DNA of 64,000 nt from NCBI GenBank assembly GCA_963716725.1, contig CAVQUB010000020.1:96001-160000 (forward strand), written 5' to 3'. The DNA is from an uncultured delta proteobacterium (GTDB taxonomy: Bacteria; Myxococcota_A; Polyangia; Polyangiales; Polyangiaceae). Below the pieces are notes generated by a model. It was not told the DNA's origin. It ran no database searches and was given only the letters and a program-made list of their open reading frames with translations. Shown here one piece after another: positions 35,615 to 47,267 of the stretch (position 1 is its first letter; each line of letters opens with the position of its first letter). The position numbers were made by a program, and so were the translations under genes.

Positions 35615-36651
35615 TCACTTGCCGACGCGCTTCTGAAACTTCAGCGTCATCCGGTCGCTTTCGCCGATGGCCACGAACTTCTCGGGGTCTTTGTCGCCCT
35701 GGCGAAGCGCGGGAGGCAGCGACCACACGCCCTCGGGGTAGTCCTTGGTGTCCTTGGCGTTGGCGTTGACTTCGCTCTTGGCCACGAGCACGAAACCCAC
35801 CGCCTTTGCCTGCTCGATGACCCACGCCTGGGGCAGATATCCCTTCTCGGCGCTCTGGTCGGCATTGGCTCCTTCGGCTGCGCGGTGTTGGACCACGCCC
35901 AGGGTGCCGCCCGGCTTCAGCGCCGCATGGATCTGCTCCAGGTTCGCCTTCACGCGCCGTCCGCGGCGATGCCAGTTGTGCATTTCTCGGAACACCAGGG
36001 CCAAATCGACCTGGCCTTCGTGGCCCAAGACCATGTTCTGGGGATCGACAACGACCACCTCGACCCTACCGGACAGCTCCTCGGACTTGTCCAAGTAGTG
36101 GCGAAAGCGCCGACCGTAAAACGTGCCCGGCGCGGTCTCCGGGCCCTTTGGATCGAGGGCCGTGACCACCAGCTTGCCTCGGCTCCGCAGTACCGGCGCC
36201 AGGATTTCCGTGTACCAGCCGTCGCCGCCGCCGACTTCCATCGCCGTCATGTCTTGGCGCAATCCCAGGAACGTCAGCGTCTGTAGTGGGCGGCGGTGCG
36301 GATCGCGCTCGGCGTTGCCGGGCTGGCGGTGCGGGCTGGCGAGCGCAGCTTCGATGGCTGCGCGCGGATTCGGGAACTTCTTTTCGCCAATCGCCTTGAC
36401 CGCAGCGCGAAGCTCGTCGTTGAAGCGCGCGCGCTCGGCTTTGGCGTCGACCTCGAGCTGAGCGAGCTTCTTCCTGGCCGCATCGTCGACCTTCCGCTTC
36501 TCGAGCTCTTCCGCGCTGGGCGCCGGGGCTCGGGTGCCGTTGCCGGCGTGGACGGGGTCGTGGGCGGCTCGGCGGGCGGTGCTTCGGCCTCAGGCTTGGG
36601 GCCACAGGCGGCGCAGAGCAAAACCAAGAGGAGCGAAGGACGAAGGTGCAT
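35615..36651 (-). CDS. lipoprotein-anchored class I SAM-dependent methyltransferase (one frameshift near 36525)
   Basis: Lipobox LLCAAC. After a single shift the frame reads ...ASPHRQPGNAERDPHRRPLQTLTFLG...EVGGGDGWYTEILAP...LKPGGTLGVVQHR...GESDRMTLKF. Confidence 0.82.
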
Positions 36652-36806
36652 GGCGAGCCAGCGTAGTGCCCTGGCTCGTTTCAGCAAGCTCGCAGAGTTT
36701 CCTCCGCGTCATGCGGCCGCGCGGCGCTCGAGACCCCGAACCCCGACTCTGGCGGCGATCCCCCGCGTCGTCCATCGACCGGTGGAGGCAGCGCCAGTCG
36801 CCACTC

Positions 36807-36977
36807 AAGAGCTGTCGAAAATTCGACAGCTCTTTCACTTTGTCATCGGGGAGGCACGCGCCTCCCCGCCCCACCGAAGTGAATTCGTTGGGGCCCCACC
36901 CCACGCGACGCGCTTCGCGATACCCGACGGGGTGGGCCGGCTCCGCCGGCCTGCGCTCCGCCATTCTTCGACAGACC
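36807..36977. mobile_element. putative MITE/REP-like structured element with imperfect terminal inverted repeats
   Basis: The left end GAGCTGTCGAAAA matches the right end (reverse complement GGTCTGTCGAAGAA). There is a palindrome at 36807-36834 plus four internal hairpins, and no ORF. Confidence 0.55.
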
Positions 36978-36978
36978 T

Positions 36979-39283
36979 TCACTCGATGATCACGTTCTCG
37001 GGGCACACCTCGAAACTCGCGAGGCACGGAAAGCTAAGCCCGGCGAGCACGCGGCGGACGCAGCGCGCGTGTGCCGGCGATCCGCCGTCGACCCGCTGAA
37101 CGCGGCCCTTGGCATCGAGCACCACGCGCACCGCGGCGTTCAACGCCATGCTCGGGCAGGCGGCGACGGCTCTGGCCGCTGCGTGCACGTCGCGCTGGCT
37201 CCTGCCGCTCACCGGCATCAACAACTCGTTGCCATCGGGCTGCGCGCACTTCGCGCCACGTGTAGCCAGGGCCTGCTCGACCTTGCGCACGTCGCCACGT
37301 GCGTCGAGTCGGCACAGGGCACCGTATCCGATCGTGGACTCGGTCGCCCGAGGGGACTCTCCCAAGGAGACGTTCCCGGTGAAACACGCGTCCGCGGCGG
37401 CGACGATGCCGAGAGCGGCGCGTTCGATTTCTTGGCGCTCGTCCGCCGAGCACACTCGCGTCTCGGAGGCGTCGGGCGTGACGACTTCTTCGCTCGCTGG
37501 GGCGGAGTCGGCGAGCGCATGCGGGGGCGTGCTCGCGTCCGCCATCGGCGCGACGGCGCCCACCGACGAGGTGTCGACCGGTGCGGGGCCCAGAGCCACG
37601 GCCGGCGCCGGTTCCCGAGCGCAGGCGGCAGACACCACGAAGCTCACGAAGGAAGCCGCAGCAGCCCGCATCGGCGCGAAGATCCGACGTGACCCAAGCC
37701 GTCCGAGCTTGTCCTCGATGCTCTCGAGTTCCGCCTCGATCTCGGCCGCCCGTGACCTCGCCGCACGCACCAGGGGAACCGCCTCCGCGAAGCCGCCGCC
37801 CGAAAGCGCTAGATTCGAGCGCGCTCCGGTAGCTCTCGACGTACAGACGATTGACCCGGGCCCGCGCCCGCTCCAGCCGCTCGACCCACGACGGCTCCAC
37901 GCGCTCGGCATGCAATCGCCTCGCGAGCCCGAGCGCAAGGAACGCGTCGTGCGTGCGGAACGCGACGCTGTAGTCCCAGAACGCTTCGGCACGCAGACGC
38001 ATGAAGATCTCCGCGAAGCGCTCCACTCGCGGGTCGCTGAAGGTGTAGCCGTATCGGAACGGGTTGCCGATCAGGCGCTGCTCTTCTTGCATGGTCTGAT
38101 GCAGGCGCGTGCCGTGGTAGACCATCATGCGCGTCGCCTCGAACACGCCGCGCGGCACCCGGTCGAGGAGATCGATGCCGCTCGCGATGGTCTCGGGAGT
38201 CGAGCACGGGTTGACCAGCATCAGGTTCGAGACCGTCACTACGCCCAGGTCGGCGAGTTGCTCGAGCAGCGCGAGCTCCGGTTCGCCCGGCGGCGGACGT
38301 CCGAAGCGGAGCCCCTCCTCGGCTGTCGCGAGCTCGAGCCCGACGAATACGCGCACCAGCCCCAGCTCGGCGAAGGCCGCGACAATGGCGGGCGTGATGC
38401 GGTCGGCCCGCAGCATGGTCCCAATACCGAACGCGCCAACCCCGCGCTCGGCGAGGCCCCGCTTCCAAAGCCTCAGGTACTCGAGGGCCTCGTGCTCCGC
38501 GTAAGGCAACAGGTGCTCGTCCACGAAGTAGAAATAGCGCACGCCTCGGCGGTGCCAGAGCTCCGCCATCTCGTCGCACACGGCGTCGATCTCGCGCCGG
38601 CGCACCCCACCAACGCCAGCGCGCGTCAGCACTTCTTTGGCGACGCCGGCCCGCACGCCCTCGCGGCGCTCGAGCGTGTGCAGCGCTGCGGGACCGCAGT
38701 ACTGGCAGCGGCCCAGGCACCCGCGAGACGCGGCCATGTGCGCGGCCTTGTAGCCCAGGATCTCCGGCAGTTCGTCGCGAAGCGGGTGAACGCTCTGGGA
38801 CACCGAATCGAGTACGTCTGCGGGCGCCCCGTCGCCCGCCCGCGTGGTGACGCCCCCGATGCCGTCGACGTTTCGTCCCTCCGCGACCCGGCGCGCAATC
38901 TCGACGATGGGGCCCTCGCCGGCGAAGCGGACCACGCTGTCGAGCCACTCGTGCCGCCCGAGCAGCCAGTCGCGGGCCAGCGTCGCGAACTGCCCACCCG
39001 CGGTGACGTGACCGCGAAACCCCGCGCGGCTCAGCGCTTCGCCCACGGCCAGCGGCAAGATCGCCGAGCCGCCGTCGGCCAGCGAGAGGCCAACCACTTC
39101 GGGAGGGCGCGCCAAGATCGCGGTCACGGCCCGCTCGAGCTCGACGGCGTCGTTGACGTAGTGGCGCTCTACGGTCATCCCGGCCTGCACGAGCGCGCCC
39201 GCCAGGTACGCGAGCCCGAGGTTCTCGTTGTGCTCGAGCCGGCGACCGACCAGCACGACCCGAGCGCGCGACGTCAGCGTCAT
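36979..39283 (-). CDS. cobalamin-binding radical SAM protein fused to a lipoprotein-like C-terminal module (one +1 indel near 37815)
   Basis: B12-binding domain (ENLGLAYLAGAL, EVVGLS, AGGQFAT, GEG), ASRGCLGRCQYC and YFVDE. Removing one base joins it to the frame of ORF 36979-37992. Confidence 0.8.
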
Positions 39284-39378: not shown

Positions 39379-40197
39379 GTGACTTCAGCTCAGCCGAAGT
39401 CGAGAGACTGGTTCTGGGTCGAAGCCGGCTCGCTCGTGGCCACGCTCGTGGGCGGCGCCGTCCTGCGCTACTGGCTCTCGACGGTGGTGCCCTTCGACCC
39501 GGGGGAGGTCGCTGTCCTCGAGCACGCGAGTGATCCCGACCGCGCCATGCGCGTGCCATTCATCATGATGAACGGCATCAGCCTGTTCGTGCTCTACGTG
39601 GTGGTACGCCGCAGCGCGGGCGTCGGAGCCGCCTTCGCCACGGAGCTCGCCCTCCAGGCGAGCTTGGTGTTTCAGCTCGAGGCGCTGCGAATACGGATGC
39701 TCAGCGCGGTTGTACTGCTCGCGCTGTTCGTCATCGCCTATGTCCGCCTGTACCGTCCGTCCAAGCGCCTCCCGCGGCGCGTCGACCGGATCCTGTTGGG
39801 CATAGCGCTGTTCCTATCGCTCCGGCAGCTTCAGCTGCTGGTCACACTGCCGGGGCGCATGGCCGAGATCCGCCGCGAGTCGCGCGCCGACGTGGCCTCC
39901 CTCGCCGCGAGCGTGGCTGCGTGTGGTGGCGAGCGCGAGCTGACGCTCGAGCGCCTGCCCAGTTGCCCCATTGCGTGGCCGACGAAGCGTTCGCTGGAGC
40001 AACAAGAATCGCTCTGGGAGCACCAGCGGCGGCTTGGCAAGGACGCCGTGGCCGTGCCGGCCGCCGTCGCGGTGCCCCCTTCGGGGCCGGGAGCGCGGGT
40101 CGCAATCCTCGATGCGCGCGGCGCCGGGTTCATCGTGGTCCCCGAGGGACCGCTCGCCACGACCGCGCGGCGCGTGCTCTCCAGCGCCGCGCGTTGA
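39379..40197 (+). CDS. hypothetical multi-pass membrane protein
   Basis: About five hydrophobic segments followed by a soluble C-terminal domain. Confidence 0.7.
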   Translation: MTSAQPKSRDWFWVEAGSLVATLVGGAVLRYWLSTVVPFDPGEVAVLEHASDPDRAMRVPFIMMNGISLFVLYVVVRRSAGVGAAFATELALQASLVFQLEALRIRMLSAVVLLALFVIAYVRLYRPSKRLPRRVDRILLGIALFLSLRQLQLLVTLPGRMAEIRRESRADVASLAASVAACGGERELTLERLPSCPIAWPTKRSLEQQESLWEHQRRLGKDAVAVPAAVAVPPSGPGARVAILDARGAGFIVVPEGPLATTARRVLSSAAR

Positions 40198-44990: not shown

Positions 44991-47267
44991 TCAGAAAAAC
45001 GCCTCCACTCCGATGCTCGGGATGGTGACCGGCCCGATCTCCTGGGCGCGGCACTTGCCCGTCTCGTCGCAGTTCAGGTCCACAGGCTCTTTGCTGAGAG
45101 TTGCGTTCAGCACCTCGACGACGAAGGCCCAGTAGCCGCTCTCGCCGAGGCGCCAACGCTTCTCGAGGCGCAGATCCACGCGGTAGAAATCCGGGACGCG
45201 CTTCGGGCTCTTGGATCGGACCTCGGTCGAGGTGGCCTCCTCGGCTGGAAATCCCGAGTAGTAGACCAGTCGCGATCCGGCACGCCAGCGGCGACCGAGG
45301 TCGTAGGCGAGCGCCAGGTTCAGGACGTGCGTGCGGTCGAAGGCCGCGGGGAAGTGCTCGCGACCGAAGCTTCGAGTCGAACGGCTCAGAGTGTACGCGA
45401 AGTAGCCGCCGAGGCGCTGGGTCAGCGGGCGACGCAGCATGACTTCCGCACCCACGGCCGAACCCAAGCTGCGCCGATCGAGGTCGTCATCGTCACCACC
45501 ACCGCCAAGGCGATCCGTCATGTCGAAGAAGACGTTCTGGAACAGCGTGAGCGAGCCGGTGAAGTCTTCGGGCAGATCGTACTCGACGCCTGCGCTAGAC
45601 TGGAGGCTCCGCTGCAAGCCTCCGCGCAGTCCTGCCAGCTGAAACCCCGGCACCGGCACCACGAACGAGGGCGGCTGGTGCGCGATGCCAAAGGCGTGGA
45701 TAGTGCGGAGCTTGGGCGTGATCTCGAATCGGGCCGAGATCCGCGGGTCGATTCCGAGGCGCGACGCGCCGTCCGAGGAATACAGATCGAGCCGCAGGCC
45801 GGGAGTCACGCTGATTCCCCGCGCGACCTCCAGCGCGAGCTCGCCGTGGACCCCCATCGCCAGATCGGTCCGCTCGGGAAAGAGTCGCTCGAAGTCCTCT
45901 TGGTCGTCGGCGTCCTCGGCGAAGTTCGGGGTGTGAACGTCGTAGTGGTCCAGCGCCACGTCCGCCCCGACGCGCAGCGCTACGTCCCGGCTGGGGCGAT
46001 GGCGCACCTCGCTGCGGAGCGCCAGCATCCGGTCGCGCATGTAGAAATCCTCATCACCCCCGCGCGTGAGGTCGTAGCCTGCCGTGAGCGCCATGCGTAC
46101 GTCCGTGTCGCGGGTGGCGCGCCGATCCCAGCGCAAGTCCACACGATGAAACTCGGTCCCGAGCAATGTCTCGACCCGGCCCTCTCGCTTCTCACCGAGG
46201 AAGTCGTACGCGCCAAAGGAGAAGAGCGTAACCGTGTCACGGGCGCTGACGTCGTGGCTGACGCGCAGCTGGTAGTCCCAATATTCGAGCACCGCCTCCG
46301 GTGAGAGCAGCGAGAGCAAGAGCCCCGTGTAGGAGTATCGACCGCCGGCCAGGGCCGTACCGCGTCCGCCGTCAAAGGGCGCTTCCATCAGGGCGCCGGC
46401 GTCGATCAAGCGCAGGTTCGCCTCGCCGTGCAGCTCGGGTCGAGGTGGGGTCGTTTCACCCGCGACGATGCCGCCGGCGAAGCGCCCGAAGCGCGCCGGG
46501 TAGCCGCCCGGGTACAGGTCCACACGCTCGATGATGCCGGGATGGACGACCGACGGGCCCAAGCCGACGTGGTAGAGCAGCGGGACTCGGATGCCGTCGA
46601 GAAAGTAGCCGACGTTGCCGGGCGGAGCTCCGCGCACGAAGAAGAAGGGCACGCCGCTGATGATGGGCGTGACGCCGGGCAGCGCCTCGATCGCCCGGAA
46701 TGGATCTCCGAAGCTGCCCGGCAGCTCGCGCACCTCGGCGCGGGTGAAGCTACGCACAGTCGGCGCGAGCTTGTCTCCGTGCACGACGACCTCTATCTGC
46801 TCGCTCGCCCGGGATGCCGGCGGCTTCGGCGCGCTGGCCGCCGGAGGCGTATCGGTCGGCGGCTGAGACGAAGGCGGCTCGGTGAACCGGAGCTCGAAGC
46901 GGATCCGCGAGGCGACCGCCCTTCCCCCGCGCTTGGCCGGATCGAAAGTCCAACGGTAGGCGCTTCGCGCTGCCGCTTCCGCGAACGGGGGTTCACCGCT
47001 GACCACGGTCACGTCGCGGACTGCGCCGTCGAGACCGATCACGAGTTCGAGGACGACGCGGGCGTCGCCCTTGCCCCCGACCGGGTAGGCCACGCTGGTA
47101 TCGCCCATCGCCCGCGGGCGATCGACGTCCTGTTGTGCCCGCGCCGCGGGCGCGATTGCCCACACCGCAATCGCGACTGACAACGCCCAGATCAGCCGGG
47201 CGTCGGCTGATCGCAACCGAACACGACGTCCACGTCTTTCACCTGCTGGGCCTTGAGCTTGTCGCAA
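44991..47267 (-). CDS. TonB-dependent receptor with N-terminal TonB C-terminal-like domain (start may be slightly downstream)
   Basis: Signal peptide; TonB_C-like YP...VVLELVIGLDGAV...FDPAKRGG; plug LPGSFGDPFRAIEALPGV; barrel ending IPSIGVEAFF. Confidence 0.9.
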   Translation of the reverse strand: MRQAQGPAGERRGRRVRLRSADARLIWALSVAIAVWAIAPAARAQQDVDRPRAMGDTSVAYPVGGKGDARVVLELVIGLDGAVRDVTVVSGEPPFAEAAARSAYRWTFDPAKRGGRAVASRIRFELRFTEPPSSQPPTDTPPAASAPKPPASRASEQIEVVVHGDKLAPTVRSFTRAEVRELPGSFGDPFRAIEALPGVTPIISGVPFFFVRGAPPGNVGYFLDGIRVPLLYHVGLGPSVVHPGIIERVDLYPGGYPARFGRFAGGIVAGETTPPRPELHGEANLRLIDAGALMEAPFDGGRGTALAGGRYSYTGLLLSLLSPEAVLEYWDYQLRVSHDVSARDTVTLFSFGAYDFLGEKREGRVETLLGTEFHRVDLRWDRRATRDTDVRMALTAGYDLTRGGDEDFYMRDRMLALRSEVRHRPSRDVALRVGADVALDHYDVHTPNFAEDADDQEDFERLFPERTDLAMGVHGELALEVARGISVTPGLRLDLYSSDGASRLGIDPRISARFEITPKLRTIHAFGIAHQPPSFVVPVPGFQLAGLRGGLQRSLQSSAGVEYDLPEDFTGSLTLFQNVFFDMTDRLGGGGDDDDLDRRSLGSAVGAEVMLRRPLTQRLGGYFAYTLSRSTRSFGREHFPAAFDRTHVLNLALAYDLGRRWRAGSRLVYYSGFPAEEATSTEVRSKSPKRVPDFYRVDLRLEKRWRLGESGYWAFVVEVLNATLSKEPVDLNCDETGKCRAQEIGPVTIPSIGVEAFF

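Follow-up and report, generated by a model that had tools for sequence, protein, structure and literature searches.

Cobalamin-dependent (class B) radical S-adenosylmethionine (SAM) enzymes such as OxsB, TsrM, MgmA, CysS and TokK combine an N-terminal B12-binding Rossmann domain with a radical SAM barrel that carries a CxxxCxxC motif. As far as their entry descriptions go and to our knowledge, none of these enzymes has a C-terminal signal segment or an exported module. We analyzed a stretch of 64,000 nucleotides (hereafter the window) from an uncultured delta proteobacterium of the Polyangiaceae (assembly GCA_963716725.1, contig CAVQUB010000020.1, positions 96,001 to 160,000), in which one gene on the minus strand encodes an enzyme of the same layout, followed in the same protein by a lipoprotein-type signal segment, a Cys-rich module that is predicted to be exported, and a conserved C-terminal tail.

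Several described systems share single aspects of this arrangement. Borosins such as OphMA hold a SAM N-methyltransferase and a conserved C-terminal tail in one polypeptide, and have no separate precursor gene. Likewise, the window enzyme and its conserved candidate core lie in one chain, as they do in 50 fused proteins, and no separate precursor gene was found; the likeness to a borosin-type enzyme-substrate fusion is one of analogy only. Unlike the borosin enzyme, which is wholly cytoplasmic, the enzyme here is a radical SAM enzyme, and a signal segment and a folded domain with predicted export stand between enzyme and tail. ApyD and PoyC belong to the same enzyme class as the window enzyme but act in trans on small leader-bearing peptides from gene clusters, and there is no such cluster at the window locus. 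ApyD, a B12-dependent radical SAM enzyme, adds a methyl group to C-beta of Tyr at the penultimate position of its peptide (PMC10635010), which shows that enzymes of this class can act at the C-terminal end of a peptide.

With TolA domain III, the TonB C-terminal domain (CTD) and AgmX/PglI, the window protein shares a layout of anchor, spacer and end domain. However, an additional N-terminal half and eight Cys set its module apart, and in place of the short cytoplasmic tail that TolA and TonB present beside ExbBD or TolQR there is a 490-residue enzyme of presumed cytoplasmic location. Lipoprotein precursors, in turn, have the same basic n-region, Ala-rich hydrophobic (h-) region and small-small-Cys lipobox as the internal segment, and stand-alone homologues of the module carry the same signal at their N-terminus; in the fused protein, by contrast, the signal starts about 535 residues in, behind a folded iron-sulfur (Fe-S) enzyme. 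Full-text literature searches turned up no account of a radical SAM enzyme joined to an exported module or a lipoprotein module, and in a preprint on tail anchors of the twin-arginine translocation (Tat) system a radical SAM protein appears only as the product of a neighbouring gene.

Structure and conservation of the fusion gene

The gene starts with an ATG at 39283 on the minus strand (N-terminus MTLTSRARVV, MTLTSRARVVLVGRRLEHNENLG). As an initial annotation of this DNA had described, a frame of class B radical SAM type with the motif CLGRCQYC runs to ..RLYVESYRSAL, after which translation of the window gives Arg-rich text up to a stop at 37034. The adjoining frame reads (N)LALSGGGFAEAVPLVRAARSRAAEIEAELESIEDKLGRLGSRRIFAPMRAAAASFVSFVVSAAC...CPENVIIE and ends at a stop codon at 36979-36981, and the third-position GC frame plot places the switch of the coding frame between about 37825 and 37795. 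The same annotation had proposed that deleting one base near 37815 restores a continuous protein of about 767 residues, and it proved right on both counts. Among 41 related genomes that we searched, six (five of the same genus and one from another family of the order) held a close homologue of the enzyme, at 67-83% identity. In all six, the C-terminal module follows the enzyme in the same open frame and without gaps, and in an alignment of the junction DNA the window (CTCGAATCTAGCG) has one base more than any of them (e.g. CTCGATCTGGCA). Furthermore, we aligned Logan contigs from four public runs of four studies (X1, X3, X7 and X10) to positions 37400-38300. Run X10 had no coverage at 37814; one base at this position was absent from the contigs of all three covering runs (X1, X3 and X7, from three studies), including the X1 contig, in which we saw no other difference from the window across 901 bases. 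No RNA run was among those listed for this sequence, a result that has no bearing on its expression. Finally, a protein database holds a continuous protein of 767 residues, P0005, that differs from the window protein by a few substitutions and reads ..YRSALDLALSGGGF.. across the junction, including ..SALDLAL... Since the six relatives and the contigs of three runs lack the extra base and P0005 is continuous, the frame break is an assembly error, consisting of one spurious base at 37814/37815, and a single gene for the enzyme-module fusion is almost certain.

Other ordinary genes of the window are broken as well. An acyl-CoA carboxylase carboxyltransferase gene (PF01039; 40243-41852, plus strand) is spread over all three forward frames, whereas its homologue at locus L024 is intact. 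The gene 3' of the fusion (35615-36687, minus strand) also appears to be split over two frames, one with a lipoprotein signal (MHLRPSLLLVLLCAACG...) and the other with a coiled region and a SAM-methyltransferase-like body (weak PF13489). These breaks point to a noisy consensus and, as a practical matter, indel errors in this assembly split real genes.

The fusion extends well beyond the close relatives. A word-indexed search with the C-terminal part returned 20 proteins of near-full length, all of which contained PF04055 and 18 of which contained PF02310, the remaining two being cut at the N-terminus; four shorter matches were fragments or miscalled frames. When we scanned 1.84 billion representatives exhaustively with a profile of seven aligned sequences, 151 proteins matched at E up to 1e-3, and a rule-based sort of the 150 that were listed yielded 33 full-length fusions, 24 fragments with enzyme or linker sequence, 73 other fragments and 20 apparent stand-alone lipoproteins. 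No stop codon separated enzyme and module in any of 50 diverged fused proteins. As judged from these alignments, at least 50 diverged proteins from Polyangiales-type Myxococcota keep the fusion architecture; the named records with the gene are metagenome-derived members of this group (Polyangiaceae, Sandaracinaceae, Byssovorax). Homologues that ended shortly after the SAM barrel, with the lipoprotein always a separate gene, would have spoken against the fusion. Instead, all six genomic relatives and all 20 near-length database matches were continuous, and the fusion is real and conserved.

Stand-alone relatives of the module exist nonetheless. After reading the sequences we kept 21 with an ordinary N-terminal signal and lipobox (e.g. 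P0078, P0099, P0130 and P0147), and left out P0049, P0090 and P0136 as probable pieces of fusions. Most of the stand-alone forms lack the tail motif described below. In quick maximum-likelihood trees of the module they were scattered among the fused proteins, and well-supported branches required at least five changes of state. A profile search of 401 Myxococcota genomes (E limit 1e-5) found the module in 8 genomes. The six strongest matches fell either within long open reading frames of 765-1004 aa or within the broken gene of the window itself, while of three weaker ones one was in a frame of 171 aa that a stop interrupts and the others were partial, in frames of 625 and 505 aa; no clear stand-alone copy was seen among the matches, the three weaker of which were not inspected. 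Searches of metagenome contigs for the loci of the stand-alone proteins P0078 and P0099 found none.

We also observed mini-genes in which the first 25-50 residues of the enzyme are joined straight to the signal segment or to the module or its end (P0048, P0082, P0106, P0124, P0145, P0146 and, at locus L020, G003:C5:236597-236800). By their sequence they look like recurrent internal deletions that lose the enzyme and keep the start and the tail.

Domains of the fused protein

The features of the corrected protein and their positions are collected in the table below; conservation figures refer to an alignment of 50 full-length fused proteins, and the AlphaFold (AF2) model of the whole protein was built from a 21-sequence alignment. 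The mean predicted local distance difference test score (pLDDT) of this model was 80.6, and values below 50 occurred only at residues 1-3, 531-607 and the last six.

Table. Features of the fusion gene and related genes. Residue numbers refer to the corrected protein; coordinates are window positions unless a contig is named.
Feature	Residues	Position	Strand	Basis or remark
Fusion gene	~767 aa once corrected	36979..39283	-	Open reading frames, frame plot, relatives, run contigs, P0005
Assembly indel site	Asp490	37813..37816	-	Coding strand GAAT; true codon GAT
B12 (cobalamin)-binding domain	11-129	38897..39253	-	PF02310, E 5.3e-10, 39.6 bits, cut-off 32.1
Radical SAM core	186-358	38210..38728	-	PF04055, 34.1 bits, cut-off 29.5
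CxxxCxxC motif, CLGRCQYC	C189, C193, C196	38696-38719	-	Inside radical SAM core
C-terminal helical part of enzyme	359-489	37817..38209	-	AF2 helices 418-493, pLDDT about 85-97; mean conservation 0.64
Long linker helix (..AEIEAELESIEDKL..)	499-528	37699..37788	-	AF2 helix; in frame in all relatives; predicted cytoplasmic
Putative internal lipoprotein-type signal segment, F-A-P-M-R-AAAASFVSFVVSAA-C	F535-C554	37621..37680	-	Alignment of 50 fused proteins
Internal ATG	M538	37669-37671	-
Lipobox Cys (putative)	Cys554	37621-37623	-
Pro/Ala-rich variable linker	555-608	37459..37620	-	Predicted disordered; pLDDT <50 over 531-607; conservation 0.20
Cys-rich module, predicted exported	609-750	37033..37458	-	Alignments; AF2 module model pLDDT 87.3
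TolA/TonB-C-terminal-like half (weak)	691-765	36988-37212	-	VIA-align, Foldseek
C-terminal tail, FPCLASFEVCPENVIIE	751-767	36982..37032	-	Mean conservation 0.70, level with catalytic domains
Divergently transcribed membrane-protein gene		39379..40197	+	Sole conserved neighbour, within genus only
Family 2 gene		G000:C12:72772-75019 (= L031:174-2405)	-	B12-dependent radical SAM paralogue, same plan

The enzyme comprises residues 1-490. Its three motif Cys were invariant in all 21 aligned proteins, and no conserved Cys for an auxiliary cluster was seen in this alignment. A Foldseek search with the full model matched OxsB (5ul3, E 9.5e-20), TsrM (6wte, 2.2e-16), MgmA (9ccb, 1.3e-15), CysS (9n1b, 2.1e-15) and TokK (7kdy, 6.2e-14). 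By domain, motif and predicted fold, then, this is a cobalamin-dependent (class B) radical SAM enzyme. It reaches no curated subfamily: matches to the NCBIfam models of B12-dependent radical SAM subfamilies (HpnR, the ladderane-lipid enzyme, ApyD and BchE) all stayed under the cut-off, the best reaching 34 bits (cut-off 360), 33.9 (650), 31.8 (750) and 24.7 (481). TIGR04072 and HpnR each matched at E 1.2e-8 and ApyD (NF050148, 31.8 bits, cut-off 750) at E 4.9e-8, and the C-methyltransferase model TIGR03975 for peptides that are made on ribosomes and then modified post-translationally gave no match at E up to 0.1. Database names of the records are generic ('B12-binding domain-containing protein' or 'YgiQ family').

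Behind the enzyme and its linker helix, all 50 fused proteins, whose frame upstream is continuous without exception, have a short hydrophobic segment that ends in Cys, so that the hydrophobic-Cys segment pointed out at the outset is conserved. In 49 of the 50 the Cys is preceded (-1) by A, G or S; P537 occurs in 46 of them, F535 in 43, R539 in 40 and M538 in only 34. The spacing from R to C is mostly 13-20 residues, which is the length of a signal peptide rather than of a membrane helix. The segment thus has the small -1 and -2 residues, the invariant Cys and the short h-region of a lipobox-bearing signal, and it differs from that of a lipoprotein precursor in position, lying at residues 535-554 of 767 instead of at the N-terminus. 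Mean column conservation was 0.64-0.68 in the enzyme domains, 0.67 in F-x-P-M-R plus the h-region, 0.20 in the linker, 0.32-0.42 in the Cys module and 0.70 in the tail. Across the aligned sequences, two short islands outside the enzyme, F-x-P-M-R with the h-region and the tail, are therefore as constrained as the catalytic core.

Immediately ahead of the hydrophobic segment, at 37680-37692 (residues 531-535), an S-R-R-I-F-A-P run resembles a Tat signal. We rejected Tat as the main export route: its two Arg are found in no more than 17 and 30 of the 50 proteins, and a disulfide-rich module suits Sec.

Module and tail together contain eight conserved Cys (612, 633, 657, 679, 709, 741, 753 and 760), six of them within residues 609-750 and the last two in the tail. 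The family pattern FPCLASFEVCPExVIxE closes the module, and the final 3-6 residues are predicted to be disordered (pLDDT <50 at 762-767 in the full model and at 159-161 in the module model). The initial annotation had likened the last domain to TonB_C/AgmX-type domains, a resemblance that is weakly supported. With a model of the module alone, built from a 63-sequence alignment, the first row of a VIA-align search of 48,161 chains was the TolA CTD (2x9a_B; Z 5.1, root-mean-square deviation 3.3 A over 73 residues, model residues 85-159), a score under the tool's trust level, and further TolA rows had Z 2.9-4.0. Foldseek likewise placed 2x9a_B first (E 0.52) and several TolA/TonB C-terminal domains at E 1-3, again under the trust level, and gave no match at E up to 1e-3. 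P0155, a divergent fused member, matched the AgmX/PglI C-terminal model NF033768 below its cut-off (24.8 bits, E 1.8e-5, cut-off 40), whereas the window module itself had no Pfam or NCBIfam match (PF03544, TIGR01352, NF033768) at E up to 1. Taken together, these results hint, weakly but consistently, at a TolA/TonB-type end domain in the last 75 residues. In the Protein Atlas we found only unnamed Myxococcota clusters and one cluster with TonB_C in 14% of its members, which is a lead only. The idea of a B12-scavenging lipoprotein, along the lines of BtuG/BtuH, received no support from fold or sequence.

The C-terminal motif is conserved, as had been asked at the outset: [VAICM]-I-x-E ends 37 of 50 proteins with the enzyme, compared to 2 of 25 that lack the enzyme. 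The genome to which the window belongs, which is 84% complete, has a single copy of the tail motif and a single copy of GLxFPCL, both in the fusion gene; a free lipoprotein with the same tail, which had been suggested as something to look for, was thus not found in this 84% of the genome. Predicted docking of residues 1-530 against residues 605-767 scored 0.00 twice in runs made without controls, a result that speaks neither for nor against binding.

The same plan recurs in a second paralogous family. Two of four paralogous B12-dependent radical SAM genes that we inspected in the same genome end with a helix, a hydrophobic segment leading to small-small-Cys, and a Pro-rich, putatively exported part. 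For one of them (family 2 in the table), the C-terminal part was fused to PF04055 in 21 of 21 database relatives. These share the sequence ...AAA-S/T-AGL...A-x-C followed by K-S-H-P-T-E-M-V-A-I-P-T, with an invariant KSHPTEMVAIPT, and end in two to four RPEMAPRPP repeats; there is a sub-threshold match to a TonB C-terminal model (TIGR01352, 19.7 bits, cut-off 27.1), and the position equivalent to M538 is variable (M/V/L/I/A/T). In a third paralogue (G000:C3, L032), the anchor is similar and the tail is rich in Pro.

Proposed export, cleavage and modification in cis

Radical SAM and cobalamin chemistry requires the cytoplasm, and the enzyme part of the fusion, which depends on Fe-S, SAM and cobalamin, would for this reason stay there. 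We propose that the internal segment would insert into the membrane with its N-terminal side in and its C-terminal side out, and the C-terminal module would be threaded out by Sec and form four disulfides; a periplasmic location of the module is suggested by its paired conserved Cys and its lipoprotein relatives. Basic residues, a short Ala-rich h-region and an A/G/S-Cys end are what Lgt and LspA recognise. Cys554 would then be lipidated by Lgt and the chain cut by LspA, which would release a mature lipoprotein from the enzyme. Lipidation and cleavage are probable because the h-region is short, the lipobox canonical and the stand-alone relatives are ordinary lipoproteins, and on balance we lean slightly towards an exported module with lipobox cleavage.

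The most speculative step is that the enzyme acts in cis on its own extension before export, which would make the gene product a one-gene precursor of enzyme plus substrate. Candidate targets in cis would be the disordered, conserved tail CPExVIxE or the cytoplasmic juxtamembrane F-x-P-M-R. The idea draws on the two islands of conservation, the absence of partner genes, the second family with its exported motifs and the known peptide-modifying B12-dependent radical SAM enzymes; we consider such cis-modification possible but somewhat doubtful. Taken loosely, as an exported and lipobox-cut precursor that may be modified in cis, the whole chain of steps is a reading that we offer tentatively. In its strict form, it is a one-gene maturation system in which the enzyme's own extension is modified (e.g. 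C-methylated), exported and cut by LspA, with the spent enzyme left behind, and which two or more paralogous Polyangiales families would each use; this form is unlikely.

A number of points weigh against maturation by modification, export and cleavage, the first being that modification, cleavage and topology are all read from sequence. The -3 position of the lipobox is Leu or Val in only about a third of the fused proteins. Thirteen of the 50 have no canonical tail (e.g. P0139, P0142 and P0160, whose tails are hydrophobic), and the stand-alone P0116 has the same kind of non-canonical tail as its fused sister, so that tails partly track descent. Among seven phylogenetically independent pairs taken from a quick tree, 3-4 changed as expected, 0 (rarely 1) changed in the opposite direction and 3-4 were unchanged (sign test, p about 0.125); because of this result, the link between tail and enzyme is suggestive, not established. 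C-terminal domains of TolA and TonB bind partners by strand addition and, by analogy, the tail could equally be a periplasmic binding strand. If the internal signal were targeted co-translationally, the tail would be in the cytoplasm only briefly. Finally, no lipoprotein known to us arises from a signal peptide that lies 540 residues into its chain, and our literature search found none with such a deeply internal signal peptide.

The main rival to maturation by cleavage is a permanently tethered enzyme, in which the segment is an uncleaved signal anchor and the protein a bitopic radical SAM enzyme of the inner membrane. Like the hopanoid methylases, such an enzyme might have its substrate, for example a lipid, in the membrane or envelope, and its spacer and TolA/TonB-like domain would position or regulate it through contact of the tail with a partner in the outer membrane or periplasm. 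An anchor, then a Pro/Ala spacer and, at the C-terminus, a TolA/TonB-like domain are indeed the layout of TolA and TonB, family 2 has a Pro-rich spacer and the sub-threshold TIGR01352 match, and no separate substrate gene is conserved nearby. The weak best NCBIfam matches also include the lipid enzymes TIGR04072 and HpnR; however, these lie far under their cut-offs and are no better than the match to ApyD. Furthermore, an h-region of mostly 13-20 residues is short for a stable transmembrane helix, a plain anchor has no need of the small-small-Cys end that the alignment conserves so strictly, and the stand-alone relatives of the module are ordinary lipoproteins. We regard a tethered enzyme as possible, if on the unlikely side.

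Another alternative is that one frame yields two products, with the lipoprotein made mainly from the internal ATG (37671) and the read-through fusion tolerated as a by-product of a lost stop, without functional coupling. From M538 on, the sequence (M-R-AAAA...A-C) reads exactly like the signal at the N-terminus of a lipoprotein, more of the proteins have Met at this position than any other residue, and stand-alone homologues exist. On the other hand, the position is not Met in 16 of the 50 proteins, and some of the replacements (F, T and others) are impossible as start codons; a Shine-Dalgarno-like motif at the usual distance upstream was found in none of eight loci; the 50 proteins have no stop between enzyme and module, and the 45-residue linker is conserved as protein in the enzyme frame; and in family 2 the equivalent position varies among six residues. 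The early suggestion that the internal ATG could give the lipoprotein alone is weakened by the same Met and Shine-Dalgarno counts, and we consider two uncoupled products quite improbable.

Extremely improbable is a frameshift that is real in the organism, as a fresh pseudogene or as a programmed +1 frameshift at CTC-GAA-T-CTA: the extra base is present in the window as assembled but missing from the contigs of all covering runs, the otherwise identical X1 included, P0005 is near-identical and continuous, the six relatives are continuous with no conserved slippery site, and other ordinary genes of the window are broken too, with the carboxyltransferase gene needing three frames. Programmed frameshifting was rejected on these grounds.

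Genomic surroundings and meaning of the fusion

The only neighbour that is conserved is the divergently transcribed membrane-protein gene, a homologue of which lies beside the fusion gene in the window and at loci L022, L023 and L024 but not at more distant loci. Its product had no Pfam match and showed no similarity to the product of the upstream open reading frame of L030. Otherwise the neighbours vary by locus (amidohydrolase, purine-synthesis genes, DnaB, a toxin-antitoxin pair, flavin amine oxidases), and clustering of the neighbours across loci found no conserved operon. As no neighbour is conserved beyond the genus, the gene looks self-contained.

Two further features of the window were observed. 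About 150 bases 3' of the fusion stop, the sequence at 36810-36836 looks like a terminator: two 10-base arms (AGCTGTCGAA / TTCGACAGCT) form a perfect inverted repeat, and TTTC comes next. At 44994-47267 (minus strand), a TonB-dependent receptor (Plug plus beta-barrel) carries TonB_C (PF03544) at its N-terminal end, as it does at L022.

Radical SAM enzymes are oxygen-sensitive, cytoplasmic Fe-S proteins, whereas lipoproteins with disulfides belong outside the cytoplasmic membrane. No annotated family accommodates their conserved covalent linkage by a signal peptide in mid-protein. If the module is cleaved, the range of Lgt and LspA would be wider, and the fusion would represent a natural way of making a lipoprotein by a 'polyprotein' route. 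Should the enzyme act in cis, this would be a new way of placing a radical modification, such as a C-methyl group, on an exported bacterial protein, and the gene structure itself would solve substrate identification, the usual obstacle for orphan B12-dependent radical SAM enzymes. Moreover, if one-gene maturation holds true, these Polyangiales families would provide the first autocatalytic radical SAM enzyme-substrate fusion and the first lipoprotein matured from a signal peptide 535 residues inside its precursor.

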